In this document: piece by piece, positions 1 through 41,650 of the stretch
How positions within the stretch are numbered: the stretch's first letter is position 1
Layout: each line of letters begins with the position of its first letter
Translations under genes and position numbers: made by a program
The notes under the pieces: model-generated
Told to the model about the DNA's origin: nothing
Database searches by the model: none
The model's input: only the letters and a program-made list of their open reading frames with translations
DNA from: a virus
Lineage: Duplodnaviria > Caudoviricetes
Reading direction: 5' to 3' (one strand)
Virus record (IMG/VR): IMGVR_UViG_3300043754_000006
Coordinates: 1 to 43,343 of that record
DNA: 43,343 bases

Positions 1-126
1 GCGACCAAAGGGTGGCGCGCCGGGCATCATCAATGACCACGCCGGCAACAGCGGGCGCCACGGCTTCCCAGACGATGACCGCGACTGGACGCTGGAAGGG
101 CGCGCGACGAAGAAGGCCGCGAACGA
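1..126. repeat. Terminal direct repeat (circular-assembly overlap), copy 1
   Basis: 1-126 is identical to 43212-43337 and lies inside the helicase CDS. Confidence 0.95.
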
Positions 127-436
127 TAACGGGCCGCCGCCGCCAGTCACATGCGACCGCTGTTTCATGCAGATACGCCGCCCACTGCCGCCCGCGTGCC
201 CGCACTGCCAGAAAATCTTGCTCGCCGAAGTCAAGGAAATCGAAGTCGGCGAAGGCGAGCTGGTGAAGATGACCGACGACATGAAGCGCGAGCAACGCGA
301 GAAACTGAAGCGCGAGCAAGCCGACGCGAAAACGCTGGATGAGCTTGTGGCGCTTGGCAAACGGCGCGGCTACAAAATGCCGATGAAGTGGGCGCAGAAC
401 GTTTTCGGTGGACGACGGCGTGGAGCAGCCGCCTAA
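2..436 (+). CDS. C-terminal part of SF2 DNA helicase (continues from 42235 across the circular junction), with a Cys4 zinc finger
   Basis: Frame from nt 2 reads RPKGGAPGIINDHAGNSGRHGFPDDDRDWTLEG...CDRC...CPHC...RRRGAAA*, in frame with the ORF opening at 42235. Confidence 0.9.
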   Translation, partial: RPKGGAPGIINDHAGNSGRHGFPDDDRDWTLEGRATKKAANDNGPPPPVTCDRCFMQIRRPLPPACPHCQKILLAEVKEIEVGEGELVKMTDDMKREQREKLKREQADAKTLDELVALGKRRGYKMPMKWAQNVFGGRRRGAAA

Positions 437-474
437 CGTGCGGTGACACACACATTTACAAACTTTCCAAAGTA

Positions 475-488
475 TTCACGTCCGTAAA
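475..488. promoter_or_regulatory. Putative operator TTCAC-N4-GTAAA (variant of TTCAC-N4-GTGAA)
   Basis: Imperfect palindrome in an AT-rich intergenic gap; the same motif occurs at 5088, 8497, 41686-41711 and 42200. Confidence 0.45.
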
Positions 489-530
489 CGTTCTAACATG
501 GTGTCACCAAACCCCATGTTAGGAGTTGTG

Positions 531-1355
531 ATGGAAATCCAAATCGTAAATGTGACGCCGGCCCTTGCACGTGAGTACCTTGCGCGCAACGCAACGAACC
601 GCAGAGTGCGGCCTGGGCACGTCACCGCGTTGGCTGCCGTGATGCAGGCTGGGCAATTCCAATCGACCCACCAGGGGCTGGCGCTGAATGACCAGGGCGA
701 CCTGGTGGACGGCCAGCACCGGCTACTGGCAATCGTCAAGTCTGGCGTCACGGTCACGATGCCCGTGGCGTATGGCGTCAACGCAGAGCACTACGGCCAT
801 TTGATGATTGACGTGGGAATGAACCGCACGACGGCTGACGTGTACGCCGTCGATAGGTTCGTGGCGCAGCCCTGCACCTTCATTGCGTACATGCATCAGT
901 CCACCAGGCACAAAGCCGTCCTGAGGCCATACCTGGAAGCGTTCGGGCCGATCATCAGCGCCATCAGCAAGGGCGGCCGGCATATGCGGCGCGGCATCAC
1001 GTCGGCGCCGATGGTCGCAGCTGCAGCTATCCGCGTCGCGATGGGCGAGGACGCGCACATGGTGAACGCGAATTTCGTGGGCATGGTTCGACTGGACTAT
1101 GACCATCTTCCGCCAGTCGCGAACGCGTTCCTGCGCCAGATGTCGAATGGCCGCGTGGATCACGCGAACAAGTGGGACCTGTTCACGCGTGGCTGGCGCG
1201 TGTACGACGCGCGGGCCCAGCAGAACGTCAAGATTCAGGTGAAGGACCACGCCGCCATCATCCAGCCGGCGCGCGAGTTCATCGGCCAGTTCATCGCGTC
1301 CCCGGCCGCAATCGAAGCGACGCACCAGCGCGTGAAGGTTCTGTTAGATTCATAG
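531..1355 (+). CDS. ParB/Srx-like N-terminal domain protein
   Basis: N-R motif (NATNRRV) and LVDGQHRLLAI; AGGAG SD at 521-525 favours ATG 531. Confidence 0.7.
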   Translation: MEIQIVNVTPALAREYLARNATNRRVRPGHVTALAAVMQAGQFQSTHQGLALNDQGDLVDGQHRLLAIVKSGVTVTMPVAYGVNAEHYGHLMIDVGMNRTTADVYAVDRFVAQPCTFIAYMHQSTRHKAVLRPYLEAFGPIISAISKGGRHMRRGITSAPMVAAAAIRVAMGEDAHMVNANFVGMVRLDYDHLPPVANAFLRQMSNGRVDHANKWDLFTRGWRVYDARAQQNVKIQVKDHAAIIQPAREFIGQFIASPAAIEATHQRVKVLLDS

Positions 1356-1477
1356 GTACGATTAATCGTATCACGCAAAGCGATTTACTTTCACGATTTG
1401 TCATCTGCCCGCCTATGCGGGCAGAATTCATTTCACTCGCTGATTTGCAGCGGGCAACATTGACAAGTCGAGAAAAA

Positions 1478-1795
1478 ATGAAAACGAATATCATTGGCGC
1501 GATTGCAGGTATGGCAATGGCCGCAGCCTCTACAGCCGCAAGCAGCAAGCATATCGTCCTGAATACTGAAGAGATGCCGAAGCAAGCACCTCGCGCCCGC
1601 GACCGCGCCACGAAGAAGGGCATGCGCCACGTGCAAAACCCGGCAGGCACGAAGCTGGCGCGCGCTGCCAGCGAAGGCACCCTGACAAAACGCCATCCGT
1701 CCGCCGTCGATTCCTACTTCTCCAATCTGTACGCGCGCCGCATCACCGCCAAAAACGCGCACCGGAAAACCCGGCAAATGCTTCGCGCCGCGTAA
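1478..1795 (+). CDS. Hypothetical basic protein
   Basis: ATG 1478 follows an AT-rich gap; MKTNIIGAIAG...MLRAA*. Confidence 0.6.
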   Translation: MKTNIIGAIAGMAMAAASTAASSKHIVLNTEEMPKQAPRARDRATKKGMRHVQNPAGTKLARAASEGTLTKRHPSAVDSYFSNLYARRITAKNAHRKTRQMLRAA

Positions 1796-1828
1796 CTAAC
1801 AATACCAACAATTCAGCCGGGGCACGTC

Positions 1829-1990
1829 ATGGACCTTACTTGGTACATCATCGCGTTGCTGTCTATCTGCGCGGCCTGTATGTGTGGCATTGATCGCGCT
1901 CGCAATCGGTTGGTGCGCGGGCTTCTGATTTGCGTTGCTGCAGCGTGCATCGTCGTCGTCTACGGCGCCCTGGCTGCGGCCCGTTTTTAA
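1829..1990 (+). CDS. Small two-TM membrane protein (53 aa, not in the ORF track)
   Basis: Manual translation MDLTWYIIALLSICAACMCGIDRARNRLVRGLLICVAAACIVVVYGALAAARF*; fills the gap and abuts the next gene. Confidence 0.6.
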   Translation: MDLTWYIIALLSICAACMCGIDRARNRLVRGLLICVAAACIVVVYGALAAARF

Positions 1991-1991
1991 G

Positions 1992-3863: not shown

Positions 3864-4204
3864 TGCAAACGAAAATCTATGTTGAACGCCAGCCGTGGCA
3901 GAACGGCGTAAGCCTGCACCTGGTTCAGCAAGCCGGCGAAGGTACCCGCTACGCCATCGCGCAGCCGGTAACTATGGAGACGATTACAGAAGATAACTTC
4001 GCAGGCCAGCATCACGCACCGTTCCTATCGCTGACGATGCACGCGGCACAGCTTCTGATGGACGAACTGTGGCACTGCGGGCTACGTCCTACCGAAGGAA
4101 CCGGAAGCGCGGGGAGCCTGGCGGCTACCGAACGACACCTGGATGACATGCGCAAGATTGCGCTTAAGGGCCTGTACGAGCCGACGAAGCGCACGGGGCG
4201 CTGA
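3860..4204 (+). CDS. Hypothetical phage protein
   Basis: Coupled ORF; AQLLMDELWHCGLRPTEG...ATERHLDDMRKI. Confidence 0.7.
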   Translation: MMQTKIYVERQPWQNGVSLHLVQQAGEGTRYAIAQPVTMETITEDNFAGQHHAPFLSLTMHAAQLLMDELWHCGLRPTEGTGSAGSLAATERHLDDMRKIALKGLYEPTKRTGR

Positions 4205-4205
4205 C

Positions 4206-4547
4206 GTGAACGCCGCCACCTTCGCGCGTCACCGCGCACGCATCGAACGCGAGCACCACGGACGCGGGCGTAAGTATCGCAAGGCGCTGGCGCATCTGAT
4301 AACGGATGCCCGCGCCGCGCTGGTTGTGATGCAGCGCAAGGTGGTTGGCTATCGCCTGCCGAACGGTGAAATGGTTTGCATCAAAACCCGGTATCGCAGC
4401 TGGGACGAAGCCACTGCAGACGTGATGCGAATCCAGGGGCTGCATACCGATGGCGACCGCGTGCCGGTTCGTGCGTATTCGTGCGCCCACTGTCGCGGGT
4501 TTCATACGACTTCGCAGGCGCGGCTATCGGCGCAGCAGCCCGATTAG
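4206..4547 (+). CDS. Hypothetical protein with C-terminal zinc-finger-like motif
   Basis: C-x-K-x-RY and RAYSCAHCRGFHTTS; GTG 4206 directly after the previous stop. Confidence 0.65.
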   Translation: MNAATFARHRARIEREHHGRGRKYRKALAHLITDARAALVVMQRKVVGYRLPNGEMVCIKTRYRSWDEATADVMRIQGLHTDGDRVPVRAYSCAHCRGFHTTSQARLSAQQPD

Positions 4548-5152: not shown

Positions 5153-5344
5153 ATGGACGAAAAAACCAAAAAGCTGCGCGACCTGATGAAGGCGCACAAG
5201 TTGGACTGCGCAGCCGTGGGGGAAATCCTGCAGCGCGCGCCGCAAACGGTTCGCGTGTGGCGCTGCACCTATGCTGCGCGAACCATTCCCGCCGATGCCC
5301 TCCGCGTTCTTGAGTTGACGCTGGCCGCGCGGGTGGCTGCGTGA
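5153..5344 (+). CDS. Small HTH DNA-binding protein (Cro-like)
   Basis: 63 aa; CAAVGEILQRAPQTVRVWR HTH pattern; first gene after the operator. Confidence 0.65.
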   Translation: MDEKTKKLRDLMKAHKLDCAAVGEILQRAPQTVRVWRCTYAARTIPADALRVLELTLAARVAA

Positions 5345-7614
5345 ATAAACCGGCAGAGCTGCACGAATCCGATATCGTTGACCAGTTTCGCGCCGCGATG
5401 GCGTCAGTGGGGCTGCGCACCGACGACAAGCTGGAAGCCGATGGCGATATCAATCGCTTCCATATCGACGGCGACCCGCCGCGCACGAAGAACGGCTGGT
5501 ATGTCCTGCACGTGGACAATATTCCGGCCGGCGCGTTCGGCTGCTGGAAGCGCGGCATTGAATCGTCCTGGTGCGCGAAAGCAGAAGCCGAACTGACCAG
5601 TGTGGAGCGCGCAGAAATCAATGCGCGCATCGAGCGAGCACGCGCTGAACGTGAGGAACGCCAGCGCCAGATGCACGCAGCTGTCGCCGACGAAGCGCGC
5701 CGCATGTGGGATGGCGCAGCGGAATGCGACACGCACCCGTATCTGGAACGCAAGGGCGTCAAATCCTACGGCCTGCGCACGGCCCAGTGGATGAACGGAA
5801 ACCAGGCCATGCTGGTGCCGATCATCGACGCCAGCGGCCAGATTGTCAGTCTGCAGGCCATCTTCGGGAACGTGAACCCCGTCATCGGGCGCGACAAGGA
5901 TTTCCTGGCTGGTGGCAAAAAACGCGGCTGCTGGTTTTCCATCGGCACGCCGCCGCCAGCTGGCAATGGCATCGTGGTGCTGTGCGAAGGCTATGCGACT
6001 GGCGCGAGCGTTTTTGAGGCAACGGGGCACTTTACCGTCTGCACGTTCGACGCCGGCAACATTAAGCCCGTCGCGCACGAACTGCGCCGCCGCTGGCCCG
6101 CTGCAACAATCCTGGTGGCGGCCGACAATGACCGCTGGACGGTGCCGACGGCGGAAAATCCGCACATCGTGGGAAACCCTGGCGTGACGTATGCGCGCCA
6201 GACGGCCGAAGCGATCCCGGCGCGGGTGCTGGTGGCAATCCCTGAATTCGCGGACCTGGACGGCAATCCGACTGACTTCAATGACCTGCACCAGCGTGAA
6301 GGCATCTACGCGGTGCGCGCGCAAATCAATGCAGTGCTGCCAAAGCCTGAACCGGCGAACGACAACACGCCGCAGCCTAAGCACCTGGCGCTGGACGCCG
6401 CCGTGAACCCGTTTGGCTTCCCGCACCTGTCGGACAAGGGGCAGCCGATTAACACGGTAGAAAACCTGGAATATGTGATTGGGGAATACGGCATCACCGC
6501 GCGTTACAACGAGGTGCGCAAGCAAGTCGAGCTGAACATACCCGGCCGCAGAGGCCGCACGCTGGACAATCGCGCGAACGTCGCGCTGGCCGAACTGAAC
6601 AGCATTTGCGCGCGCAACCGCATGCCACAGTCGATGCTGGCCGATTACGTCAAGGTGCTGGCCGACCGAAACACGTACAACCCGGTATGCGACTGGATTA
6701 AGTCGAAGCCGTGGGACGGTACGCCGCGCATCCAGGCGCTGCTTGACACGGTGACAGTGGACGGCGACGCCACGCTGAAAAACAAACTGATTTACCGCTG
6801 GCTGCTGTCTGCTGTCTCGGCGCTGTTTAAACCGTTCGGCTTCACGTCGCACGGCGTGCTGGTATTCACGGGTCCGCAAGGCCAGGGCAAAACCAGCTGG
6901 GTAAAAGCGCTAGTGCCCGAAGATATGGGCGTTGTCCTGGAAGGCGCCACGCTGGACCCGAACAATAAAGACACCGTTGTGAACGCGGTTTCTCATTGGC
7001 TGGTGGAGCTGGGCGAACTCGATGCGACGTTTCGCAAGTCGGACATTGCGCGCCTGAAATCGTTTGTGACGCAGGCCGTCGATAAGCTGCGCCGTCCGTA
7101 TGACCGCGTCGAGTCAGAGTATCAGCGCCGCACCGTGTTTTTCGCATCGGTCAACGAGGGCCGCTACCTGGTGGATACAAGCGGCAACCGTCGCTGGTGG
7201 ACCGTCCCCGTTCTGTCCGTGAACTACAGACACACCATCGATGTGCAGCAGGTATGGGCTGAATTACTGACACATTTCGAACGCGGCGAACAGCACTGGC
7301 TGCTGGATGACGAACAAAAGGGCGTCAACGACCTGAACACGGACCATGAAGCCGTGGACCCTGTTGAAGAAATGATCGCGGCCCATTTCGACTGGCAAGC
7401 CCTTGCTGGCATAGGCTATCGAGACATGACGGCCAGCGAGGTGCTTTCAGAAATAGGTTATGACAAACCGAATAAGGCGCAGGCCACCCACTGCAGCACC
7501 GTTCTTAAAAAACTGACCGGCGCCGACTCTAGGAAAACCGGGTCGCGCCGCGTTTTCAAAATGCCGCCTGTCGCGAGAAAATCGAGGGGGTTCGGTGACG
7601 ATTCCCCAATCTAA
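5341..7614 (+). CDS. Toprim primase fused to VirE/VapE-type SF3 helicase (replication protein)
   Basis: CEGYATG, AADND and TDFNDL Toprim motifs; Walker A GPQGQGKT; ELGELD; RRPYDR; SGNRRWW; C-terminal wHTH-like region. Confidence 0.9.
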   Translation: MNKPAELHESDIVDQFRAAMASVGLRTDDKLEADGDINRFHIDGDPPRTKNGWYVLHVDNIPAGAFGCWKRGIESSWCAKAEAELTSVERAEINARIERARAEREERQRQMHAAVADEARRMWDGAAECDTHPYLERKGVKSYGLRTAQWMNGNQAMLVPIIDASGQIVSLQAIFGNVNPVIGRDKDFLAGGKKRGCWFSIGTPPPAGNGIVVLCEGYATGASVFEATGHFTVCTFDAGNIKPVAHELRRRWPAATILVAADNDRWTVPTAENPHIVGNPGVTYARQTAEAIPARVLVAIPEFADLDGNPTDFNDLHQREGIYAVRAQINAVLPKPEPANDNTPQPKHLALDAAVNPFGFPHLSDKGQPINTVENLEYVIGEYGITARYNEVRKQVELNIPGRRGRTLDNRANVALAELNSICARNRMPQSMLADYVKVLADRNTYNPVCDWIKSKPWDGTPRIQALLDTVTVDGDATLKNKLIYRWLLSAVSALFKPFGFTSHGVLVFTGPQGQGKTSWVKALVPEDMGVVLEGATLDPNNKDTVVNAVSHWLVELGELDATFRKSDIARLKSFVTQAVDKLRRPYDRVESEYQRRTVFFASVNEGRYLVDTSGNRRWWTVPVLSVNYRHTIDVQQVWAELLTHFERGEQHWLLDDEQKGVNDLNTDHEAVDPVEEMIAAHFDWQALAGIGYRDMTASEVLSEIGYDKPNKAQATHCSTVLKKLTGADSRKTGSRRVFKMPPVARKSRGFGDDSPI

Positions 7615-8212
7615 ACTCTCGCGATCAATCGCGAAGAAGCAAGGTCTATCGCACTACTTCACGGGCAAGCCGTGCAAAAATGGACATGTTGCGCGGCGCA
7701 AAACGTCGAATGGTTCGTGCCTGCAGTGCGCCAGCGCCGACATGTCCAGATGCAGGATGGAAGATCCGCAGAAATTTCGCGAGCGTGATGCCCGGTGGAT
7801 CGCGAACAATCGCGAGCAAGTGCGCGCGAGCGCTGCGGCGTATTCAGCCAAAAATAGGCAAGCGGTTACGCGGCGCACTGCGGCGTGGAGAAAGGCGAAC
7901 CCGACCAGGCACGCAGAACACGTAAAGCGATACGCGCAGTCCAGACAGCACATTCTGCGCGCAAAGCTTGCGAGGCGCCGCGCCCGAAAACTGCGCGCGA
8001 CGCCGCCGTGGCTGACCGACGAACATAAGATGCTGATTCTTGCCATATATGACCAGGCGGTCAGGCTTTCGACGGAAACCGGCATGGCGCACGAGGTAGA
8101 CCACATCATCCCTTTGCAAGGCGACAATGTGTGCGGGCTGCATGTTCCATGGAATCTTCGGGTGACAACTATGAGGGCAAACCGCGCGAAGGGGAACCGT
8201 CATGCGCCCTAA
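7595..8212 (+). CDS. HNH homing endonuclease
   Basis: YFTGKPCKNGH...CLQC at the N-terminus; HEVDHIIPLQGDNVCGLHVPWNL...N HNH motif. Confidence 0.88.
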   Translation: MTIPQSKLSRSIAKKQGLSHYFTGKPCKNGHVARRKTSNGSCLQCASADMSRCRMEDPQKFRERDARWIANNREQVRASAAAYSAKNRQAVTRRTAAWRKANPTRHAEHVKRYAQSRQHILRAKLARRRARKLRATPPWLTDEHKMLILAIYDQAVRLSTETGMAHEVDHIIPLQGDNVCGLHVPWNLRVTTMRANRAKGNRHAP

Positions 8213-11789: not shown

Positions 11790-12278
11790 ATGCGATTACC
11801 GCGAAGCGTACAAGAAATAGCCGACGTGATCGGACGTGAACGCGCCCTGTATCTGATCGGGCAATTACCGCGATGTGTTGCTGGTGCGCCGGGTAAGCAG
11901 TCGTCTCGCGTGATGCTCTATGTGCCGACCGTTTCACGTTTGACGCTGCAGCACGAACTGGTGCGCATCCTGGGATACAAAGACGCGGTGAAGATGTGCC
12001 GACATTTCGGCGGCGAAATCCTGCAGCCGGCGAATTGCTCTGAGATTTACAGAAACTATCGAGATAGGATGATCGATAGTTATTTGCAGGAACGCGTTTC
12101 AGTCGCGCACATATCGGCGATCTTTTGCGTCTCGCGCGAAACCGTGAATGCGGTTCGACGCCTGCAGAAACCACAAGAGGATTCACCCGTGGCAGCGAAT
12201 GACAATGCCCCATCAAAACGAAGGGCGCGCGCTGTCAATGCATCCACAAGCCGATACCGGGGGAAACCTGCTGCTTAA
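11790..12278 (+). CDS. Mor/C-like late transcription activator
   Basis: LPRSVQEIADVIGRERAL..., FGGEIL, RDRMI and a C-terminal HTH (VAHISAIFCVSRETV); lies directly before the lysis and late genes. Confidence 0.7.
   Translation: MRLPRSVQEIADVIGRERALYLIGQLPRCVAGAPGKQSSRVMLYVPTVSRLTLQHELVRILGYKDAVKMCRHFGGEILQPANCSEIYRNYRDRMIDSYLQERVSVAHISAIFCVSRETVNAVRRLQKPQEDSPVAANDNAPSKRRARAVNASTSRYRGKPAA
12164..12206 (+). promoter_or_regulatory. Late promoter 1 (lysis/packaging): GCAGAAACCACAAGAGGA-N19-GACAAT
   Basis: One of five copies with identical spacing. Confidence 0.75.
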
Positions 12279-12477
12279 AATCGCCGGCTTGTGGGCGATG
12301 ATTGGCGTTACGTCATGGTCTGAGGCTGCGAGTTTCGCGGCCTTTTGCCTTACCGTGTATTTGTTCGCGCGGCACATCTGGCGCGATATCGTGCGGCCCT
12401 TCCTGGAAGATAAAGGCATCGTTAAGCGGCATCACAAGCATGCGCGCGACGATGACGATGCACTGGGGGCCGCATGA
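12238..12477 (+). CDS. Putative holin
   Basis: Small, two hydrophobic segments and a charged C-terminus; first gene of the lysis cassette. Confidence 0.65.
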   Translation: MHPQADTGGNLLLKIAGLWAMIGVTSWSEAASFAAFCLTVYLFARHIWRDIVRPFLEDKGIVKRHHKHARDDDDALGAA

Positions 12478-12710
12478 AGTTCATTGACGAAGCGCGTTTC
12501 TTTTGGCGCATGTATAGCACGCACGCTTACATGCTCACGATGGCTGTGCTGGGCGGCTTTGCGTGGCTGGCGAAAGTGCATCCCGAGTATTACGCGCGTG
12601 TGCCATCGTGGATGCTTGGCGTCGTCGCTGTCTTTCTGGCTTTCACGTATGGCATCAGCCGATGCGTGAAGCAGGTTTCGGTTTCGGGTGGCGACAATGC
12701 AGCCAGCTGA
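12474..12710 (+). CDS. Second small membrane protein (holin/antiholin)
   Basis: 78 aa with two TM segments, between the holin and the endolysin. Confidence 0.65.
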   Translation: MKFIDEARFFWRMYSTHAYMLTMAVLGGFAWLAKVHPEYYARVPSWMLGVVAVFLAFTYGISRCVKQVSVSGGDNAAS

Positions 12711-13155
12711 TTTTCTCGCTGCCGTGGCGCCATCTGCAAAGCTGTGCATGGCGCAAGCGAAAGTGCCAGCAAGCGTGACGCTGGCGCAGGCAATTCTTGA
12801 ATCTGCATGGGGTGGTTCAGCGCTCGCGACGCAGGGTTTCAATCTGTTCGGCATCAAGGCCGATCCATCGTGGCATGGGCAAACCATCACGATGCTGACG
12901 CATGAAGTCGTGAACGGCAAAACGATTGCGATAAATGCGCCGTTTCGCAAGTACACGTCCTGGCTTGGCAGTGTCGATGACCATGCGGCGTTTCTGCGCG
13001 GCAATCAGCGCTATGCGTCGGCATTCCTGACGACGACCGCTGAACAGTTCGTGACGCGCATTGCTCAGGCTGGATATGCGACCGACCCGAATTATGCGAG
13101 TGCGCTGATTTTCCTGATGCGCTCGCACAACCTTGAACAATACGACAGGGGCTAA
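12697..13155 (+). CDS. Endolysin, GH73 (FlgJ-type) glucosaminidase/muramidase
   Basis: AQAILESAWG, NLFGIKA, FRKY and GYATDPNY motifs. Confidence 0.92.
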   Translation: MQPADFLAAVAPSAKLCMAQAKVPASVTLAQAILESAWGGSALATQGFNLFGIKADPSWHGQTITMLTHEVVNGKTIAINAPFRKYTSWLGSVDDHAAFLRGNQRYASAFLTTTAEQFVTRIAQAGYATDPNYASALIFLMRSHNLEQYDRG

Positions 13156-13157
13156 AA

Positions 13158-13472
13158 ATGCTCTCAATCGTTGCCACCGTTATTTCGATCCTGAATGGGC
13201 TGTTCAATCTCTGCAAAGGATTGTTCGGAAAATCGTCGCAGCCAGTAGATGGCACGGCGAACGCTGTTGCGACCGAAAACAAGATCGGCGCCACGGCTGC
13301 CCAGGTTTCGCGCGATACGGCGCAGCAAGTGAATGAGGATATCCAAAATGCGACCACTGACGAGTCTGCTGGTGCTGCTGATGTGCGTGACGCTGACAGC
13401 GTGCGCGACCAGCAATCCGCAATCAATGACGCAATCGATCGCGCAAACGCATCAGCTGGTCCCGACAATTAG
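13158..13472 (+). CDS. Putative i-spanin (Rz-like)
   Basis: N-terminal hydrophobic anchor and helical tail; overlapped in another frame by a lipoprotein gene. Confidence 0.55.
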   Translation: MLSIVATVISILNGLFNLCKGLFGKSSQPVDGTANAVATENKIGATAAQVSRDTAQQVNEDIQNATTDESAGAADVRDADSVRDQQSAINDAIDRANASAGPDN

Positions 13473-13704
13473 CTGCTCGGAAGATACGCCCGATGTGACG
13501 CTGGGGGCGTATCCGCTACTGACGGACGATGCAGCGTTAGAGACGATGCCGCTGAACGAACAAGTGGCAGCACTGAAGAACGACCGAACGATGCAAGTCG
13601 TTTGGGCAGTCCAGACCAGCGGCGCGTTTGGATTGGAAAAGAAGATGCGCGCCGCGACACGAACCTGCCTGCAAACTCTCAGGGCGCGCGGGCTAATCAA
13701 CTGA
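13348..13704 (+). CDS. Putative o-spanin lipoprotein (Rz1-like)
   Basis: MRPLTSLLVLLMCVTLTA-C lipobox; GAGGA SD; starts inside the upstream gene. Confidence 0.65.
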   Translation: MRPLTSLLVLLMCVTLTACATSNPQSMTQSIAQTHQLVPTISCSEDTPDVTLGAYPLLTDDAALETMPLNEQVAALKNDRTMQVVWAVQTSGAFGLEKKMRAATRTCLQTLRARGLIN

Positions 13705-13718
13705 TAGGTGATTCGAAA

Positions 13719-14138
13719 ATGATTTCTCTTCTTTCCATCGTTTCGGCAGTCGAAGCCGTATTCACGGCAGCCGAAGAAGTCGAAACGGAATTCAACGTGC
13801 TGAAGCCGTACGTTACGCAGCTGATGCAGGCTGCTGAAACGGCGTATGGCACTTCGCAAATCGGCGGCCAGACCAAGTTCAATTCGGTCATGGCTGCAAC
13901 GAAGGCGATTGCGGCGCAGATCGGATTGACCTGGTCGAACGGTTTGGAAGCCGCCATCGCTGCGTTCATCAACGTGGCGAAAGCTGCTTTCAATGCGTTC
14001 GCTGGTGTTGTCTCGACTGTGGCACCGTCCACTGCTGCGGCTGTGTCGTCGGCTACCAGTGCAGTTTCGAGCGCAGCCAGCACGGCGAGCGCGGCGCTAG
14101 CATCGACCGTTGCTAGCCCGACTGTCACGCCGGCTTAA
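13719..14138 (+). CDS. Ala/Ser-rich hypothetical protein at the end of the lysis cassette
   Basis: AGGTG SD before ATG 13719; amphipathic helices and a low-complexity tail. Confidence 0.65.
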   Translation: MISLLSIVSAVEAVFTAAEEVETEFNVLKPYVTQLMQAAETAYGTSQIGGQTKFNSVMAATKAIAAQIGLTWSNGLEAAIAAFINVAKAAFNAFAGVVSTVAPSTAAAVSSATSAVSSAASTASAALASTVASPTVTPA

Positions 14139-14408: not shown

Positions 14409-14912
14409 ATGGGCGTGAAACTGAACCGTTCCGGCCTGGCTGAACACATGGGCGTAAGCCTGCCGACCGTTGATAGGTGGGTGAAAGATGGAATGCCCGT
14501 CGTTCAGCGCGGCGCGCGCGGCGTTGAATGGTCGTTCGACCTGGCAGATGTAATACGGTGGTACGCGCAGCGACAAGCCGAAGCAGCTGGGGGCGCCGTT
14601 GATGACCTGGCGGAAATCGAGAAGCGCACCGCGCGCGCAAAGATGGAGCAGGCCGAACTCGCGCTGGCGAAAGAAAAGGGTGTGGTTGCCCCTGTCCGTG
14701 AGTTTGAGCGCGTGCAGGCTGCTATGATGGCGGCTATTCGCCAGAACATTATGAACGTGCCGCAGCGGGCGGTTCTTCAGCTTCTGGGCGAGACGAACGA
14801 GACTGAGTTTAAACGAAAGCTGCGGGCCGAACTAACGCTGGCGCTTGAGCAATCCGCTAAGGCAGACCTGGCGCTGGATGACGACGAAGAAGAAGATGCA
14901 GACGACGCCTGA
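14409..14912 (+). CDS. terS: Terminase small subunit (lambda Nu1-like)
   Basis: LNRSGLAEHMGVSLPTVDRWVKDGMPV wHTH followed by a coiled coil. Confidence 0.9.
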   Translation: MGVKLNRSGLAEHMGVSLPTVDRWVKDGMPVVQRGARGVEWSFDLADVIRWYAQRQAEAAGGAVDDLAEIEKRTARAKMEQAELALAKEKGVVAPVREFERVQAAMMAAIRQNIMNVPQRAVLQLLGETNETEFKRKLRAELTLALEQSAKADLALDDDEEEDADDA

Positions 14913-15543
14913 AGTAATCTCGCGCGCTCAGGCCAAGACGCTTGGCTTGAAAACATATTTCACGGGCAACCCATGCCTTCGCGGACATATCGCCCTGAGG
15001 CAGACCGCCAGCGAAACATGCACGCAATGCGCCAAGGAAAAGCACAAGGCGCGCTACGCGGCGGACCCTACGCCGTACATCGCGCGCAGGATGGCGGCAT
15101 ACATCGCGAACCCTGAGGCAGAACGCGAGAAGATGCGGGGGCATTATCAGAAGAATAAGGGGGTGCAAGCCGCAAAGTCCCGCGAGCGATACTATGCCGA
15201 CCCCGAATCCCGTCGCGCAGCATCCCGAGAATGGGCTGCAAGGAACCCAGAAAAGCGCAAAGCGCAACACATCAAGCGACGCGCGCAGAAGCAAAACGCA
15301 GCTGCCGCGTGGAGCGTCGAGCTTACCGCGCTGGTTGCGCTTGAGGCGGCCGGCCTTACTGCTATGCGCGAGCGATGCACGGGCATATCGTGGCACGTTG
15401 ACCACATGCTTCCGCTGATTGGCAGAACGGTATGCGGCTTGCACGTATGGAATAACCTGCAGGTTATTCCGGCAGCAATGAACATGGGGAAGAAAAACCG
15501 GATGGTTTTCACCCAGCCAGGCGAATGGGTCGCTCGCCTATGA
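14896..15543 (+). CDS. HNH homing endonuclease inserted between terS and terL
   Basis: YFTGNPCLRGH...CTQC; WHVDHMLPLIGRTVCGLHVWNNLQV..N; paralogue of 7595-8212. Confidence 0.88.
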   Translation: MQTTPEVISRAQAKTLGLKTYFTGNPCLRGHIALRQTASETCTQCAKEKHKARYAADPTPYIARRMAAYIANPEAEREKMRGHYQKNKGVQAAKSRERYYADPESRRAASREWAARNPEKRKAQHIKRRAQKQNAAAAWSVELTALVALEAAGLTAMRERCTGISWHVDHMLPLIGRTVCGLHVWNNLQVIPAAMNMGKKNRMVFTQPGEWVARL

Positions 15544-17585
15544 AAGATGACGGCCAATTCTCAAACCTGGATGCGGTGGTAGGCGCGATGCGCGCCGCTG
15601 CCGTTCACCTGGTGCCGCCGCCGGATATGCTGCCATCTGAGTGGGCTGAAAATAACGTGGTAATCCCGGTTGGTAACGCCATCCCCGGGCCGATAAATTT
15701 CGACAATGCACCTTACCAAAGGGGCATGGTCAACGTCATCAAAGAGCCAGGCGTACTGCGGGCAGACTTCATGACGGGCGCCCAGATCGGAAAGACGCTT
15801 ACGATGCAGTGCGCGGTCGGGTTCTTTATCGCGCACGAACCGCGCAGCCAAATTTTCGCTCAGCCGTCGCAGGGCGACATGCAGACGTTCATGGAAACGA
15901 AGATGAAGCCGATGATTGAGGCTAATCCCGCGATTTCCATGCTGATGGCAAAGCCACGCAGCAGGCACGGCGTTAACAATTCCCGAATCGTTTCGTACGT
16001 CGGTGGATGGCTGATGACGGCGTGGGCCGGCTCACCGAAAACGGCTCGCGGACGCTCCGCCCCTGTAATTCATGCTGACGAAGTAGACGGAATGCCGCCT
16101 ACTGCCGAAGGCGATTTCGTTGAACTGCTGGGGCAGCGCGCCGCGACCTTTGGCGACCAGCGGCTTATGCTTCGCAGCAGCACACCAACCATTAAGGGTG
16201 CATCCCGCATCGAAACCGGCTTCCAGGAAGGTGACCAGCGGCGCTTCTATGTGCCCTGCCCTGACTGCGGCGAAGGCCAGTATCTGAAGTGGTCCAGCGT
16301 TCACTGGACGGGGCGCAAATCTACCGACATCGCTGACGCTGACGAAGATATCGGGCAAGAGCACCAGCCAGAAACTGCGATGTACAGCTGCGAAGCGTGC
16401 GGAGTTCTTTGGGATGACGGACGCCGGATCGGGGCAATTCGCAACGCAGAGCGCGACGGCCACGGCTGGAAAGCAGCAAAGCCGTTCAAAGGCCACGCGA
16501 GTTTTCATGCCCCAGAGATGCTTTCGACGTTCAGGCGCCTGCGCGATATCGTGCAATCGTATCTGGATAAGCTGGCCGTTGGCGACCTTCAGTCCTTCGT
16601 GAACGTTTCCTTGGCGGAAACTTGGGAAGAACGCGGCGACAAGGCCGACCCGAACACCCTGATGGCTCGCCGCGAGGTGTACCGCGCGCAGGTTCCGATG
16701 GGCGGCGTTTGGCTATCTGCCGGCATAGACGCGCAGCAGGACCGCCTGGAAGTTAAGGTGAAGGCGTGGGGCGTTGGGGAAGAGTCCTGGCGCATTGCGT
16801 ATTACGTCCTGTGGGGCGATCCGCTTGCGCCGGAAGTCTGGCAGGAATTGGAAGATGTGCTGAACGAAGAATTCGAGCACGAAAGCGGCGCCATGCTGCG
16901 CATCGGCGGCGCGTGCCTGGATACTGGCGGCACGAACTCATACACCCAGGTGGCATACGACTGGCTGCGCGGAAAGACTGGGCGCCGCATCTTCGGCGTG
17001 AAGGGCGTAGCAGGCTGGGGGCGCCCCATCGTTGAGAAGCCGCAGCGCAAGCAATCCGGCAAGAATGCGCGCAAGGTTGACCTGTTCTTGGTAGGCGTTG
17101 ACGAAGCGAAGTTGATAATCATGCGCCGTTTAAACATGCCGTCGCCAGGGCCTGGCTATATCCATTTCAGCCAGGATGCAGACGCCGAATACTTTCAACA
17201 GCTTACGGCGGAAAAGCTGGTGACGCGGTATGTGAAAGGCTACCCAAAGAGGGAATGGACAAAGCCAGACAGGGCGCGAAACGAAGCGCTGGACACTGAA
17301 GTGTACTCTTTCGCCGCGCTGAAGATAATGCAACCAAACCTGAAGCGCCTGGCGGAAAAGCTGCAGCAGTTCGCTCAACAAAATCGCGGCATTATCGCGA
17401 GAAAAACGGAAGAAACGCCGAAAAAAATCGGAGAACAGCAAAAAATCGCAGCAAACGACAACAAACCCACGCAGAACCCACAAGAGGAACGACCGGCACC
17501 GCGCACCGAGAATAGCGGCATTGTTCGGTCCAAGCGTGCCCTGAAGGCGAGAAATCAGAAGGGCAACTGGGCCACCAAATGGTGA
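15540..17585 (+). CDS. terL: Terminase large subunit (lambda gpA family)
   Basis: GAQIGKT Walker A, ADEVD Walker B, SSTPT, CPDC...CEAC, GIDAQQDRLE and RNEALD motifs. Confidence 0.95.
   Translation: MKDDGQFSNLDAVVGAMRAAAVHLVPPPDMLPSEWAENNVVIPVGNAIPGPINFDNAPYQRGMVNVIKEPGVLRADFMTGAQIGKTLTMQCAVGFFIAHEPRSQIFAQPSQGDMQTFMETKMKPMIEANPAISMLMAKPRSRHGVNNSRIVSYVGGWLMTAWAGSPKTARGRSAPVIHADEVDGMPPTAEGDFVELLGQRAATFGDQRLMLRSSTPTIKGASRIETGFQEGDQRRFYVPCPDCGEGQYLKWSSVHWTGRKSTDIADADEDIGQEHQPETAMYSCEACGVLWDDGRRIGAIRNAERDGHGWKAAKPFKGHASFHAPEMLSTFRRLRDIVQSYLDKLAVGDLQSFVNVSLAETWEERGDKADPNTLMARREVYRAQVPMGGVWLSAGIDAQQDRLEVKVKAWGVGEESWRIAYYVLWGDPLAPEVWQELEDVLNEEFEHESGAMLRIGGACLDTGGTNSYTQVAYDWLRGKTGRRIFGVKGVAGWGRPIVEKPQRKQSGKNARKVDLFLVGVDEAKLIIMRRLNMPSPGPGYIHFSQDADAEYFQQLTAEKLVTRYVKGYPKREWTKPDRARNEALDTEVYSFAALKIMQPNLKRLAEKLQQFAQQNRGIIARKTEETPKKIGEQQKIAANDNKPTQNPQEERPAPRTENSGIVRSKRALKARNQKGNWATKW
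17471..17513 (+). promoter_or_regulatory. Late promoter 2 (head genes), inside the 3' end of terL
   Basis: GCAGAACCCACAAGAGGA-N19-GAGAAT. Confidence 0.75.
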
Positions 17586-24732: not shown

Positions 24733-24775
24733 GCAGAACCCACAAGAGGAAGCACCCCGGCATGCCGTCGAGAAT
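24733..24775 (+). promoter_or_regulatory. Late promoter 4 (baseplate/fibre genes)
   Basis: GCAGAACCCACAAGAGGA-N19-GAGAAT, intergenic. Confidence 0.78.
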
Positions 24776-29995: not shown

Positions 29996-30038
29996 GCAGA
30001 ACCCACAAGAGGAAACCCGCTGCATCGCGCGGGAAAAT
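29996..30038 (+). promoter_or_regulatory. Late promoter 5 (sheath/tube operon)
   Basis: GCAGAACCCACAAGAGGA-N19-GAAAAT, intergenic. Confidence 0.78.
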
Positions 30039-36414: not shown

Positions 36415-36440
36415 TGAGTGCGCGTGAATGACTTTTGGTT

Positions 36441-36681
36441 GGGGGTATCGCTGGGGGTATCGGGTTGACCTAATCGCGCGCAGGCCCTATAAACATAGGG
36501 CTTTGCGACGCCTTTGATATTCCAAAGCACAAGGTTCATAGGGTTCACTGGGCGTCAAGGGGCATCACCGCCCGTCACTATAAGTAATTGATCCGCCGTA
36601 AGATTCCGGTCTAGCCGGAAAATTCGCAAGCGATTACAAAGACGGGTATTCGCCCCGCAAGGGGGTATCGCTGGGGGTATC
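36441..36681. other. attP-like region bounded by 21-bp direct repeats (integrase arm-type sites)
   Basis: GGGGGTATCGCTGGGGGTATC at 36441-36461 and 36661-36681; IHF-like GATCAATTACTTA on the minus strand at 36581-36593; non-coding and adjacent to int. Confidence 0.7.
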
Positions 36682-36685
36682 CTAA

Positions 36686-37960
36686 ATGACTGATTCATTC
36701 GCCCGCGCCCTATCCGACGCCAAGGTGCGCAACTCCAAGGCTGCCGACAAGCCCGTGAAGCTGACGGACGGCGGCGGATTGCATCTGCTGGTGCAGCCGA
36801 ACGGTTCGAAGCTGTGGCGCTACAAATTCCGCGTACACGGGCGCGAAGGGCTGCTGTCCATCGGCGCCTATCCCGACGTATCGCTGGCCGCTGCCAGGGA
36901 GCTGCACCAGGCGGCGCGCGAGAAAGTGGCGGCAGGAATCAACCCGGTTCACGAACGCCAGGACGAACGGCGCGAAGCGGCCCGCGCCGTAGTCGTGGCC
37001 CAGGCTGGTGCGTTCGGTGTCGTCCGCCAGAACTGGATGGACGACACGGCAGAAGAACTGAGCAAGCGCACGAAGCAGCAGCGCGCCTGGGCGATTGGTG
37101 CCTACCTGGCAGAACTGGAAAAAACCAGCGTGACCGAAATCAAGCGCCAGGACGTTTCGCGCATTCTGCTGCGCGTCCAGAAGCACGCGCCGACCGTGGC
37201 GAAGCGGCTGCGCGGCTGGCTGGATTGCATATTCGAACGAGCCATTGACGAAGGGCTGATCGAGCTAAACCCAGTCCCGCCAGCGAAGCTTCTGAAGCGT
37301 CGCCGCGCAAACAGCCATGTGGCGATGGAGCTTGCGGCATTCCCGCAATGGATGACGAACCTGGCGGCGTTCCAGTCTTACCCGTTCACCAAGGCGGCCC
37401 TGCTGCTGATCGTGCTAACCGGCTGCCGAAAAGAGGAAGCATGCGGCGCCGAGTGGTCGGAATTCGACCTTGACGCAGGACGCTGGGAAGTGCCGGCCTG
37501 CAGGATGAAGATGCGCAAGCAGCACGTATTCCCGTTGTCACGGCAGGCAGTCGAATTGCTGCGGCACGTCCGCGAGTTCTCAGAAGGCCGCAGATACGCG
37601 TTTCCTGGCGTCGGAACTGCCAAGCACATCAACGGCCGATCACTGAATTATCTGATGCGAAACACGCGAGCGGGAACCGAAACTGTGCATGGTTTTCGTG
37701 CGATGTTCAGCACATACATGAACGGGCTGAAAGAGGACCCTGACGTTATCGAAATGTGCCTGGCGCATGCCGACAAGAACACCGTGCGCGGCGTGTACAA
37801 CCGATATCAATACATAGATGAGCGCACCGCGATGCTGCAGAAGTGGGCGGACGATTTAGACGCGCTGGTGTCGAAGGCAAGCGGCAAGCCGCAGCAGCTT
37901 TACGTCGTGCAGCCGAAAGTCGGTTTTGCAAAAAAACAACTCACGAAGATCGCGGCGTGA
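36686..37960 (+). CDS. int: Tyrosine integrase, P4 family (Arm-DNA-binding domain)
   Basis: LTDGGGLHLLVQPNGSKLWRYKF; TGCRKEE (R); K; HGFR; LAH; VYNRYQY catalytic set. Confidence 0.95.
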   Translation: MTDSFARALSDAKVRNSKAADKPVKLTDGGGLHLLVQPNGSKLWRYKFRVHGREGLLSIGAYPDVSLAAARELHQAAREKVAAGINPVHERQDERREAARAVVVAQAGAFGVVRQNWMDDTAEELSKRTKQQRAWAIGAYLAELEKTSVTEIKRQDVSRILLRVQKHAPTVAKRLRGWLDCIFERAIDEGLIELNPVPPAKLLKRRRANSHVAMELAAFPQWMTNLAAFQSYPFTKAALLLIVLTGCRKEEACGAEWSEFDLDAGRWEVPACRMKMRKQHVFPLSRQAVELLRHVREFSEGRRYAFPGVGTAKHINGRSLNYLMRNTRAGTETVHGFRAMFSTYMNGLKEDPDVIEMCLAHADKNTVRGVYNRYQYIDERTAMLQKWADDLDALVSKASGKPQQLYVVQPKVGFAKKQLTKIAA

Positions 37961-38724: not shown

Positions 38725-38943
38725 TTACGCGCGACGCAGCTTCGCGTGCTCAGCTTCGCAGCCAGGCCCGCAGTACAGTCGCGTGTTGTCATTCGCCGCG
38801 AACGGTTCGGCGCAGTGAGGGTTCAGGCATTCGCCGATTGCCTGAAGGCGCGGCATCTTGCCCATCAAGACGCGCTGCCGTTCCAGCGCGTCCAGTGTGT
38901 TGGTGGCTTCGGCGGCCTGGGCTTTGTCGATATCGTCAGACAC
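38725..38943 (-). CDS. TraR/DksA-like C4 zinc-finger protein
   Basis: GTG 38943; SDDIDKAQ (DxxDxA) and CLNPHC...CGPGC. Confidence 0.7.
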   Translation of the reverse strand: MSDDIDKAQAAEATNTLDALERQRVLMGKMPRLQAIGECLNPHCAEPFAANDNTRLYCGPGCEAEHAKLRRA

Positions 38944-39295
38944 GGTGCACGCATCCCGGATGGCACGCGCATCCCTGGCCGCCTTTGCAGCATGCGCCGC
39001 CGTCTGGCGCTCGAAGATTGTCGTTCGCGTGCGAGACGACGGCGCCCGACCCTTCCGACTCACCGAACGCCAAAACGACGCTGCTCGCCTTCTTATGCTC
39101 GAATTCAATCAGCATATCGATGACGTGCCGCGCCTTCTCCAAATCCTGGACGCCGCCCTTTTGCCGAAACCGCGTCACGTACTTGACGATGGTATGCTGG
39201 CATGCATCCAGGCCGTTCGCCATGCTGTATTCCATCGGCTGGATTGGCATGGATTTATAGTGGTCCCCGCCCACTTGTGTTTCCAGTGCGCTCAT
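38936..39295 (-). CDS. DUF3310 (T7 gp1.7/SaV-like) protein
   Basis: QVGGDHYK..IQP...KYVTR..KGGVQDLEKA. Confidence 0.85.
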   Translation of the reverse strand: MSALETQVGGDHYKSMPIQPMEYSMANGLDACQHTIVKYVTRFRQKGGVQDLEKARHVIDMLIEFEHKKASSVVLAFGESEGSGAVVSHANDNLRAPDGGACCKGGQGCACHPGCVHRV

Positions 39296-39510
39296 TTCGG
39301 TTCGTTGTCGTTAGCTGCAACCATGTTCGCCGTCTCCCAGGCTTCCAGCTGCGCGATTGGATAGCGCACCTTGCTGCCTAGCTTTTGATACGGCGGCCCC
39401 TTTTTCTGCGTGCGCCAGTTCGCCAGCGTGCCAGTGCTGACGGCGAGGCCCCACCGCTCCGAGACTTCCGAAGCGGTAAGGTATTTCGGCTGTGATGCTG
39501 CCTGCGCCAT
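39292..39510 (-). CDS. Excisionase-like HTH protein
   Basis: YLTASEVSERW...TLANWR..KGPPYQKLGSKVRY. Confidence 0.8.
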   Translation of the reverse strand: MAQAASQPKYLTASEVSERWGLAVSTGTLANWRTQKKGPPYQKLGSKVRYPIAQLEAWETANMVAANDNEPK

Positions 39511-39530
39511 AGTGTGATGCTTCCCCGTGG

Positions 39531-40517
39531 TTATGAATTGACGCCAAGCGCCTGGTTCAGCGCATCAGCCTTCTGGTTGTCGTTCGCTGCTGCGCGTGCC
39601 GCGTCGAACGCCTGCGCCGACTTCTTCAAGTCGTCTGGGCAGCCCTTCTTGTCGATGGCGTTGCGCACCTTCGCAGGGAGTGCCTTCCAGGCCTTCTGCA
39701 GCGCTTCCATGCCCTGTTCGCACACCAGCTGCAGGCTATCGCGCGCCCGCTTCACTTCGTCGTCTACCGACTTGGCGCCGTCCACCCAATCGCGCAGCGC
39801 TTTGCCGGCTTCGGCCGTCAAGTATCCCGACGCGGCTTCGCCAGCGACGCCGAAAATCGACTGCAGTTCAGCGGGGCACTTGATGATATCGCGTTCCTTG
39901 CCGCCATTCCAAAGCATCAGGCTGGCGGTTAGTTCGAACGTGAAATTCTTTTCCTGGATGGGCAGAACGCCTTGCGGTTCGTACTCGGTCTTTCCTTCGC
40001 GCTTCACCAGCTTGACCTTTTCGCGAGCGCGCATGCAGGCGACGATGTGAAGCGGTGACTGCAGCATCACGCTCATGAACGATTTGTGTTCCCGCTTCGC
40101 GTCGTTCCATCGCGGATTCTTCGGCGCCTGCCCGTCGCGCCCAGGCGCGTGCGCGATATCTTCGCAGCCGCCAATTCCTTCCCACTCATGCGAAACGCTG
40201 TCGATAACGAGCACTTCCACGCCAGCTTTCACAAACGCCTGGATGGCTTCGATGTATCGCGCTGGCGAAAACGGCGGCTGCAGGTCGCCAATCAGGAATT
40301 TGTGAATGACGCCATCGGCATCGCGCAGCGCATCGCTGTACAGCCGGCCGCGCCGGTTTTCCGTGCAAATAAAACCTACTTTCTTGCTGTCGTAATTCGC
40401 CATGCCCCAGGCGAGTTGCAACGCCGTGAAAGTCTTTCCGCCGCCAGACACGCCGCCCAGTCCGATTACCAGCCGCGCCCCTTCGCGTTCGGCTTCTTCG
40501 ATTTTAAAGATGCTCAT
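39531..40517 (-). CDS. Sak4-like AAA ATPase / single-strand annealing protein
   Basis: GVSGGGKT, TENRRG, VIDSVSHEWEG and CMRARE; lies between the exonuclease and ssb. Confidence 0.85.
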   Translation of the reverse strand: MSIFKIEEAEREGARLVIGLGGVSGGGKTFTALQLAWGMANYDSKKVGFICTENRRGRLYSDALRDADGVIHKFLIGDLQPPFSPARYIEAIQAFVKAGVEVLVIDSVSHEWEGIGGCEDIAHAPGRDGQAPKNPRWNDAKREHKSFMSVMLQSPLHIVACMRAREKVKLVKREGKTEYEPQGVLPIQEKNFTFELTASLMLWNGGKERDIIKCPAELQSIFGVAGEAASGYLTAEAGKALRDWVDGAKSVDDEVKRARDSLQLVCEQGMEALQKAWKALPAKVRNAIDKKGCPDDLKKSAQAFDAARAAANDNQKADALNQALGVNS

Positions 40518-40535
40518 TCCGTTTTTGCCCCGTGT

Positions 40536-40667
40536 TTAAGAAAGAATCGCAGCCAGGATGGCGATGATAAAGCCGGTCATTACAACCAGCATCATCAACG
40601 CCCACATACCTGTTGCGAACATGCAGAAGTTGGCAGCCAGCTTGAAAATTGCTTCAACGACGATCAC
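40536..40667 (-). CDS. Small hydrophobic membrane protein (43 aa)
   Basis: GTGA overlap with the exonuclease stop; almost entirely hydrophobic. Confidence 0.5.
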   Translation of the reverse strand: MIVVEAIFKLAANFCMFATGMWALMMLVVMTGFIIAILAAILS

Positions 40668-41650
40668 GCGGCGCCAATCAGGTGTTCGTTTTGCTTCAGG
40701 TGCCACTGCGGCAGGCTGATCGTCTGCACGCTGCCGTCGCTGTATCCCGGCCACGTGTTCGTGTGCCGACATTCCGCGTAACGTTCCAGCGCGCCACGAT
40801 ACTTCGCGCGGCCCAGCGCCACGCTTTCGTCATCGAGAACGTACACCTGGACGGCATGCGGAAATGCTTTTTCGACGGCGATAAACACGAACGCCTTGGC
40901 GCTGGTCGGGTGCTTCGCGAAGTCGTCCGATTTCGACTGTCGCAGCGCTTCGTTCAGCGTGTCGAGATAGAACGGGTGCTGCATGTCGTACCCGTACTTT
41001 GCGATGGATCGTGCGAACCCTTCTGGGCTGGCGTCGTCTGTCGTCTTAAGATCGGCCACGATGCCATCCATGCGCCACAAGTCGGGCCGCACGCGGATTA
41101 GTTCGCCTGTCACAGGGTCCACGGCATACGCTGAATATTCGGTGACGTACTTGCTGCCGGTAAGCACCTTGCTGGCGGACGGATGCGCCATAACCGCATC
41201 GCGCATCGCATACAGCTGGTCGCGCTCTTCAATGCTGATGATGGTTCGGCCGGCATTCGCGACGGCGTAGCGCTGCTTAAGTTCGTCGGCGATCTTCGCA
41301 TCGGGGCAAACCGCTTTCAGGCGTTCGATGAGTTCTGCCTTCGTGCCCGATACTTTCTCGCCAGCATCCTTCAGCGCCGCTTTCAAGTCATCGATGGTGG
41401 ACAGCGCATCTTCGGGCAGCACCAGCGGCAGCACGTAAGATTCATTGAACAGTTCGGGTTCAAGAACCAGCATATGGAATGCGGTCCCGATGCGCATGGC
41501 TGCAGTTGGCTGGTTGTCATTAGCCGAAGTGCGCGATGCGTGAAGATGCAGCGGCGATGAATTCTGCAGCTTGCACAGCATCGAATTCGACGCCCCTTCG
41601 CCGCCGTGATAGTCGGCGTTGCTGATATCCCCGTAAATTCCCGGCTTCAT
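40664..41650 (-). CDS. RecE/ExoVIII-like PD-(D/E)XK exonuclease (DUF3799-like) with an inserted SAP-like motif
   Basis: PGIY..ISNADYH, GTAFH, RVRPD, DLKTT, YGYDMQ..Y and WPGY; AGGG SD before ATG 41650. Confidence 0.9.
   Translation of the reverse strand: MKPGIYGDISNADYHGGEGASNSMLCKLQNSSPLHLHASRTSANDNQPTAAMRIGTAFHMLVLEPELFNESYVLPLVLPEDALSTIDDLKAALKDAGEKVSGTKAELIERLKAVCPDAKIADELKQRYAVANAGRTIISIEERDQLYAMRDAVMAHPSASKVLTGSKYVTEYSAYAVDPVTGELIRVRPDLWRMDGIVADLKTTDDASPEGFARSIAKYGYDMQHPFYLDTLNEALRQSKSDDFAKHPTSAKAFVFIAVEKAFPHAVQVYVLDDESVALGRAKYRGALERYAECRHTNTWPGYSDGSVQTISLPQWHLKQNEHLIGAA

Follow-up and report, generated by a model that had tools for sequence, protein, structure and literature searches.

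The virus contig IMGVR_UViG_3300043754_000006, a single stretch of 43,343 bases whose whole length is referred to below as the window, holds the complete ~43-kb genome of a myophage from the PPpW-3/Mica/Jilinvirus group, and the tetrapeptide ANDN recurs in nine of its proteins. This motif is selected as a peptide, in non-virion proteins only, and within the phage family it has been kept in members with alpha-, beta- and gammaproteobacterial hosts, gained anew at some positions and lost in concert once. ANDN is also the head of some of the peptide tags added by transfer-messenger RNA (tmRNA), and the explanation to which we give about an even chance (probability close to 0.5) is that the nine sites are genome-encoded docking sites for the adaptor SspB, which would shorten the life of lytic proteins via the protease ClpXP.

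ANDN is over-represented in the non-virion proteins of the window

The coordinates and preceding residues of the nine sites listed in the initial annotation (Table 1) were all verified, and the six reading frames contained no other ANDN and no ANDE. All nine copies lie in the sense frame of called genes, with none off-frame or intergenic. Less than one chance copy per proteome had been predicted; for 63 hand-called open reading frames (ORFs) 0.16 copies were expected against the nine observed, and the maximum in 2000 per-protein shuffles was 3. No tetrapeptide was more over-represented than ANDN (p 1.4e-13; the lowest p of any tetrapeptide in 200 shuffled proteomes was 3.6e-7), and the DNA word GCNAAYGAYAAY gave 9 matches against 0.17 expected, with at most 2 in 100 dinucleotide shuffles.

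As first noticed, no copy falls in a virion protein (0/9 within 22 virion/assembly ORFs, which account for 6052 of 13860 amino acids (aa); p ~0.006). The placement mostly in linkers or tails was also borne out, the sites lying between or beyond Pfam domains, in a zinc-finger loop, or in a low-confidence loop of the RecE-like exonuclease. In the AlphaFold2 model of the latter, otherwise good, the site occupies the loop between helices 33-41 and 50-63, which is the lowest-confidence block (predicted local distance difference test score 64). The sites thus have the properties of short linear motifs, being located outside Pfam domains or in loops and conserved against variable flanks, and the flanks contain 20% order-promoting residues against a background of 30%. 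Six of the nine read AANDN, and the rest have P, H or S before ANDN. The codons vary, as claimed, but the range given for alanine was too wide: it is GCG six times, GCT twice, GCA once and GCC never. Sense-frame location of every copy and wobble positions that, in 178 other sites, vary at about background frequency uphold the view that selection acts on the peptide.

The motif is kept, gained and moved across the phage family

The comparison covered 32 records, namely the window, 10 cultured phages, 16 IMG/VR records and 5 contigs from bacterial assemblies; several of them are partial, and G003 and G084 are only distantly related. Between 4 and 13 ANDN were found in 24 of the 32. Relatives with the motif infect E. 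coli, Pseudomonas and Burkholderia; of two further phages outside the set of 32, HeidiAbel_Bas97 has 6 copies (one probably incidental) and KA2-1 has 7; alphaproteobacteria-associated members are a Microvirga contig with 7 and a Sphingopyxis contig with 4. In ten cultured phages of beta- and gammaproteobacterial hosts, six core proteins offer 60 homologous sites, of which 46 hold the word xNDN; the flanks are identical at 417/1852 positions (23%), with 203 synonymous codon differences in pairwise comparisons. The core sites were picked on NDN, and the identity of NDN itself is therefore by construction.

By protein, 26 ANDN (and 1 ANDD) were counted in 32 RecE homologues, and ANDN was present in 22 of 31 helicases (two Jilinvirus cases being at another, probably incidental, site), 23 of 29 primase-helicases, 19 of 28 excisionases, 17 of 26 late activators and 13 of 27 terminase large subunits (TerL). 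Residues N67-D68-N69 of the excisionase were invariant in 19 rows of the alignment, rows that had been picked for carrying NDN. In total, the homologues contain 149 ANDN in 138,775 aa of non-virion protein versus 5 in 147,880 aa of virion/assembly protein. The motif was found in 37 ORF clusters or families of the phage group, some of these occurrences being incidental, and its extended form is [A/P]-ANDN-x-P. The preceding residue is A, G, P, S or V in 29 of the 37 families (background 37%), a set that we take to be position 1 of the E. coli SspB consensus, and proline is the commonest residue two places after ANDN in 15 of the 37.

Gain at non-homologous positions, a sign that was looked for, was observed in the Sak4 tail and in the TraR-like loop, both acquired in part of the family (the window/Mica clade). 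The helicase motif moved to about position 417 in Alexa and Mano, and this was kept as a case of turnover. A putative 'compensatory' helicase site at position 276 in Jilinviruses was dropped because it varies among ANDN, ANDD and ANDE within a conserved segment. None of the annotations inspected for relatives of the PPpW-3/Mica/Jilinvirus group mentions the motif, and no description of it in phage proteins was found by a full-text literature search (abstract-level, with subscription journals thinly covered and supplements outside the search).

Concerted loss in the sister lineage of the window

A tree of Sak4, helicase and RecE was computed for 31 records, G084, which lacks the helicase, being left out. 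Two records, G069 and G071, together form the sister group of the window (support 1.0), nested among motif-rich phages, and retain none of the core ANDN sites (0/6 and 0/4, respectively). Their helicase and Sak4 are 79-84% identical to those of the window despite the loss of the motif, and the GAA end of RecE is changed to GAD or GAE. The repressor-like helix-turn-helix (HTH) gene of the window is absent together with the motif in this lineage; G069, a complete record, has no repressor-like HTH gene, no ParB-like gene and no integrase match, and no integrase was seen in G071.

Over 30 records, those without any core site were 0/23 with integrase versus 3/7 without integrase (Fisher p 0.009), an association that represents at most two independent events and in which two of the seven integrase-less records are partial. 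Two integrase-less phages, ep3 and Arya, tell against a tie to lysogeny by keeping 5/6 and 6/6 core sites; Arya has an integrase pseudogene, according to the available text of PMC5754474. Because of the few independent events, the partial records and these two counter-examples, the link of the motif to lysogeny is only a lead.

Likeness to tmRNA tags and presence of SspB

The likeness to the head of tmRNA tags, from which the initial annotation had started, was confirmed in alphaproteobacteria: tags begin with ANDN in 3/3 genomes, this head is the constant part of the alphaproteobacterial tags, and all nine sites of the window match it. The same head is thus shared with the alphaproteobacterial system of ssrA tag, SspB-alpha and ClpXP (SspB structures 2QAS, 2QAZ and 2NYS), and proteins of some relatives have the same spacing of 7-9 residues to a terminal AA or VA. 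Unlike that tag, the phage motif is encoded inside protein genes and not added by trans-translation, is often internal or far from the C-terminus, and occurs in phages of beta- and gammaproteobacterial hosts whose own tags mostly differ. The E. coli tag is AANDENYALAA, of which AANDENY is the SspB-binding half; binding alone can induce the degradation of tags with a weak end, and AANDENY without a proper end is bound by SspB with little degradation (available text of PMC8512704). The phage motif resembles this tag in its AAND start and in the modular logic of a head for the adaptor and a tail for ClpX, but it has N instead of E at position 5 and no Tyr at position 7, where proline is common, and the terminal ALAA is absent from the nine proteins of the window, three of which end in AA.

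Whole tag-like tails, ANDN-x7-9-AA/VA, were found in relatives, among them methyltransferases of E. coli phage ep3 and Klebsiella phage KA2-1, and where ANDN stands 6-10 residues from the end, 7 of 12 families finish in AA, VA or AV (counted by eye; baseline 0.20, p 0.004). AANDN was estimated at ~1100 occurrences in IMG/VR against ~550 for a permutation (one codon spelling; extrapolated from 7 and 15 of 64 parts). Among sampled IMG/VR matches, 124 for AANDN and 122 for the permuted word, a stop was visible in 59 and 68 frames, of which 10 and 1, respectively, ended in AA (p 0.003). Among the window proteins, AA ends occur in 3/9 with ANDN versus 4/50 others (p 0.064), and one more ANDN protein ends in RRA; the TraR-like homologues end in RRA or RAS in 7/7 cases with ANDN and 0/11 without. 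Regardless of ANDN, AA is terminal in 95/518 non-virion versus 12/531 virion proteins. The other AA-ending proteins of the window are the integrase, a small repressor-like ORF at 5153-5344, DUF7696 and a holin.

The host is likely to belong to the Burkholderiales, because the nearest named integrases are those of Burkholderia and Bordetella and the Sak4 of the window is ~90% identical to that of Mica. SspB was present in 59/61 genomes of this order (58/60 without the unpublished genome G110), and only in E. coli and Caulobacter among 14 control genomes; it is described as limited to certain proteobacteria in the available text of PMC8138137. At least 8 of 301 Burkholderiales genomes (G110 included) have ANDNSYALAA tags, so that beta hosts can use an ANDN head and the host of the window could match. 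A complex predicted for a beta-type SspB dimer and the excisionase tail scored 0.56, and 0.52 was obtained with an unrelated control; this result was not counted as evidence. In host chromosomes, AANDN and AADNN occurred at ratios of 9:1, 13:2 and 2:0 (three alphaproteobacteria), 2:1 (beta) and 3:6 (gamma); 19 of 29 chromosomal hits were inspected, and since some were apparently off-frame, others resembled mobile elements and others again were incidental, nothing was concluded from them.

Two alphaproteobacterial genomes have sspB immediately downstream of the tmRNA gene (loci L362/L396, G002:C19:218595-219476; and L363/L397, G005:C91:13964-14942). Several large phages encode an SspB-like protein of their own (H140, H141, H144, H148-H151), including Ralstonia FLC4-3B and FLC1-1B, Pseudomonas pf16, Erwinia AH06, Xanthomonas RTH11 and others; these represent another route to the same pathway.

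Docking of SspB as the preferred explanation

We propose that [A/P]-A-N-D-N-x-(P), exposed as it is in loops and tails of the late activator and of proteins for replication, recombination, excision and packaging, may dock the SspB of the host, which would tether the carriers to ClpXP and shorten their lives. Degradation would take place where a carrier also offers an end that ClpX can engage (AA or RRA) or a loose tail, the fixed second Asn possibly compensating for a missing aromatic contact, and the benefit would be that lytic proteins are cleared while lysogeny is being established or maintained. SspB-ClpXP is favoured because of the cases that combine head and tail, because the carriers are cytoplasmic lytic proteins that a lysogen must silence, and because in the nearest lineage the motif was lost alongside lysogeny genes. 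The earlier interpretation stands in part, as to peptide selection, restriction to non-virion proteins, gain of new sites, likeness to the tag head and SspB in the host order; the match with the tag of the host does not.

Several observations weigh against it. The motif fails to follow the tag of the host: phages of E. coli, Pseudomonas and Burkholderia have ANDN and not ANDE or ANDD, the E. coli phages keeping it although the tag of their host begins AANDE, so that host-tag tracking was rejected. None of the 30 Burkholderiaceae tags read (from 52 matching genomes) begins with ANDN, and the fourth position, which varies in beta tags (D/E/K/S), is fixed as N in the phages. A ligand of the E. 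coli SspB type would be expected to have an aromatic residue at position 7, the Y of AANDENY; an aromatic there was found in 0/9 sites of the window and 2/195 sites in relatives, and the aromatic +2 residue of nearly all sampled beta and gamma tags is the commonest one in just 2/37 families. The full tag geometry, with terminal AA 6-10 residues from the head, occurs in 0/9 window sites; AA ends are not in excess in ANDN proteins (24/145 versus 71/373 other non-virion proteins); and AANDE is not enriched in IMG/VR (~440 versus ~410 for the permutation, one codon spelling).

Alternative explanations

Some of these observations would follow if the motif had another reader, one that needs the second Asn and is either a conserved proteobacterial protein or a phage protein without recognisable SspB sequence. 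The likeness to the alphaproteobacterial tag would then stem from ancestry or from a reader that both use, and the role of the motif would be to bring proteins together, for example at replication sites or at another protease. The fourth residue stays N where host tags have E or D (as in RecE), proline and not an aromatic is preferred at +2, AANDE is not enriched in viruses, and many carriers end in DIPF, RPF or TKW instead of AA. On the other hand, the window has no match to the SspB family, no gene of the window co-occurs with the motif across the 32 records, and the two unknown ORFs considered as adaptors, DUF7696 and the conserved ORF at 4143-4547, gave no adaptor-like match; moreover, it is difficult to account for a terminal AA at tag-like distance unless the ssrA pathway is involved. 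We regard another reader as the main rival, possible but doubtful. A ParB-like reader was also rejected: Alexa, G079 and G083 lack the gene and have 5 ANDN each, and FoX1, MQ-4 and G001 possess it and have 1-2. The 16 phage records in which an SspB-like gene was found all lie outside the phage group of the window. We hold just as tentatively a broader version, in which the motif would be a family-wide short-linear-motif programme spanning alpha, beta and gamma hosts, with an ANDN-specific reader even in E. coli (a host protein or a new binding mode, and not the AANDENY-SspB contact), and would work as a lysogeny-tied switch dropped by strictly lytic lineages.

SspB could also read the motif and leave most of the proteins undegraded, as decoys or tethers which titrate the adaptor and slow the turnover of ssrA-tagged and other substrates. 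This would suit the 6/9 window carriers that lack a terminal AA, the internal position of several sites and the little degradation of AANDENY without a proper end (available text of PMC8512704). We consider it unlikely, in that the carriers include probably scarce regulators, such as the excisionase and the late activator, and exclude the abundant virion proteins, and a single abundant decoy would do the work of nine.

It is improbable that the motif is left over from an alphaproteobacterial ancestor, or is a word preferred in linkers, and has no present function in beta and gamma hosts. Alphaproteobacteria-associated members do exist (the Microvirga and Sphingopyxis contigs), and some ANDN are incidental in structured regions (helicase position 276, RecE near its end, HNH); but a relic would hardly have been kept at 46/60 sites of the ten cultured beta and gamma phages amid diverged flanks and synonymous changes, gained in the Sak4 and TraR-like proteins of the window/Mica clade, and quickly erased in G069/G071 at such high helicase and Sak4 identity.

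Finally, it is hardly credible that the signal is one of DNA or RNA (a promoter box or a site bound by a protein) and spells ANDN by coincidence, for although this is partly true at one site, where the late-activator ANDN lies over a GACAAT hexamer, all 9 matches are in the sense frame, the wobble positions are near background in 178 other sites (AAC 153:AAT 25; GAC 149:GAT 29; AAC 145:AAT 33; sites that share ancestry and are not independent), no common word was seen by eye in the DNA flanking the nine sites, and G069 has the promoter-like element without any ANDN.

A late-promoter-like element and other features of the window

The element just mentioned, GCAGAA[AC]CCACAAGAGGA[AT]-N18-GA[CGA]AAT, is made up of an 18-bp box, N18 and a hexamer and has 5 matches in the window and 0 in 100 shuffles. 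Its copies lie upstream of or within lysis, head, baseplate and sheath genes, and it resembles a late promoter on which the late activator probably acts. It is conserved in relatives, where the protein reading is NPQEE/IPREE. In the first copy the D-N codons of the late-activator motif, GACAAT, are at the same time the -10-like hexamer, so that this site is not a clean peptide-only case; G069 retained the element and lost ANDN, and the DNA and peptide signals are therefore separable.

Table 1. Positions of the nine ANDN sites and of other features of the window discussed in the text.
Feature	Coordinates	Strand	Gene or product	Location or remark
AANDN	116..130	+	DEAD-box helicase	linker before C-terminal four-cysteine region
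PANDN	6352..6366	+	primase-helicase (5341-7614)	linker between Toprim (212-321) and VapE-like (454-670) domains
AANDN	12192..12206	+	late transcriptional activator (11790-12278, ends GKPAA)	tail
AANDN	17448..17462	+	terminase large subunit (15525-17585)	C-terminal tail beyond nuclease domain (324-605)
AANDN	38785..38799	-	DksA/TraR-like zinc-finger ORF (likely 38725-38943, ends KLRRA)	loop between two cysteine pairs
HANDN	39017..39031	-	DUF3310 protein (38936-39295)	variable tail
AANDN	39304..39318	-	excisionase-like HTH_17 protein (39292-39510)	three residues from end
AANDN	39576..39590	-	Sak4-like AAA_24 ATPase (39531-40517)	tail; mostly restricted to the clade of the window
SANDN	41513..41527	-	RecE/DUF3799 exonuclease (40664-41650, ends HLIGAA)	loop
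Late-promoter-like element	12164-12206, 17471-17513, 20248-20290, 24733-24775, 29996-30038	+		five copies
Tyrosine integrase	36686..37960	+	ends TKIAA	nearest named homologues Burkholderia 49-50%, Bordetella 48%
Winged-HTH repressor-like gene	41780..42193	-		between divergent RecE and helicase operons

The gene content of the window is that of a contractile-tail phage with an integrase, a divergent recombination operon and a replication operon, and its TerL is 54-67% identical to those of PPpW-3, Mica, Persinger, phiRSP, Mano, the Jilinviruses, the FoX phages and Alexa. The PPpW-3/Mica/Persinger/phiRSP/Mano/Jilinvirus/Foxunavirus myophages have the same gene order and core genes and the motif at homologous sites. 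The ORF labelled TraR-like from the beginning has no PHROG or Pfam match; the label is backed by the four-cysteine motif and by the annotations of the gene at the same position in relatives. The helicase gene begins at 42235, passes over the circular join and finishes at 436; its product ends in RRGAAA. A terminal repeat of 132 bp (43212-43343 vs 1-134) covers its ANDN site, and the 3' copy lacks 2 nucleotides inside the ANDN codons; this gap, a few bases from the contig end, is probably an assembly-end artefact, the 5' copy being favoured because 22/31 helicases of relatives carry ANDN.

No tRNA or tmRNA gene was found in the window, nor any tRNA/tmRNA fragment near the integrase that could have served, through attP, as a clue to the host. 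The word GGGGGTATCGCTGGGGGTATC is repeated at 36437-36463 and 36661-36681, flanking the gap before the integrase; these may be attP sites of the arm type, bound by the integrase. Two related HNH/endonuclease VII-like genes lie after the primase (7595-8212) and between the terminase subunits (14845-15543). The endolysin, the Rz-like pair and the next ORF (12474-14138) are common only to the window and G069 among the 32 records (51-66% identity).

Implications for the control of phage proteins

Genome-encoded signals for Clp proteases include the SspB-bound RseA fragment, the substrates with C-terminal Ala-Ala, the virulent repressor of Mu and the O protein of lambda, and control of phages by host proteases is so far known protein by protein. 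These cases are like the one presented here in their encoded link to ClpXP and in the control of phage regulators by a host protease, but each is a single protein with its own signal, whereas here one motif recurs in 37 ORF families. If docking to SspB is true, one adaptor-docking word in many unrelated proteins would make up a regulon built from degrons and not from promoters. HeidiAbel_Bas97, with an annotated integrase, a CI-like repressor and 6 ANDN, makes the question testable in E. coli sspB and clpX mutants, and the motif-less sister lineage G069/G071 offers a natural control. Recognition of ANDN by E. coli SspB in the absence of the aromatic residue would mean that this adaptor has a wider specificity than assumed; otherwise, the phages of this family would have another, new reader.

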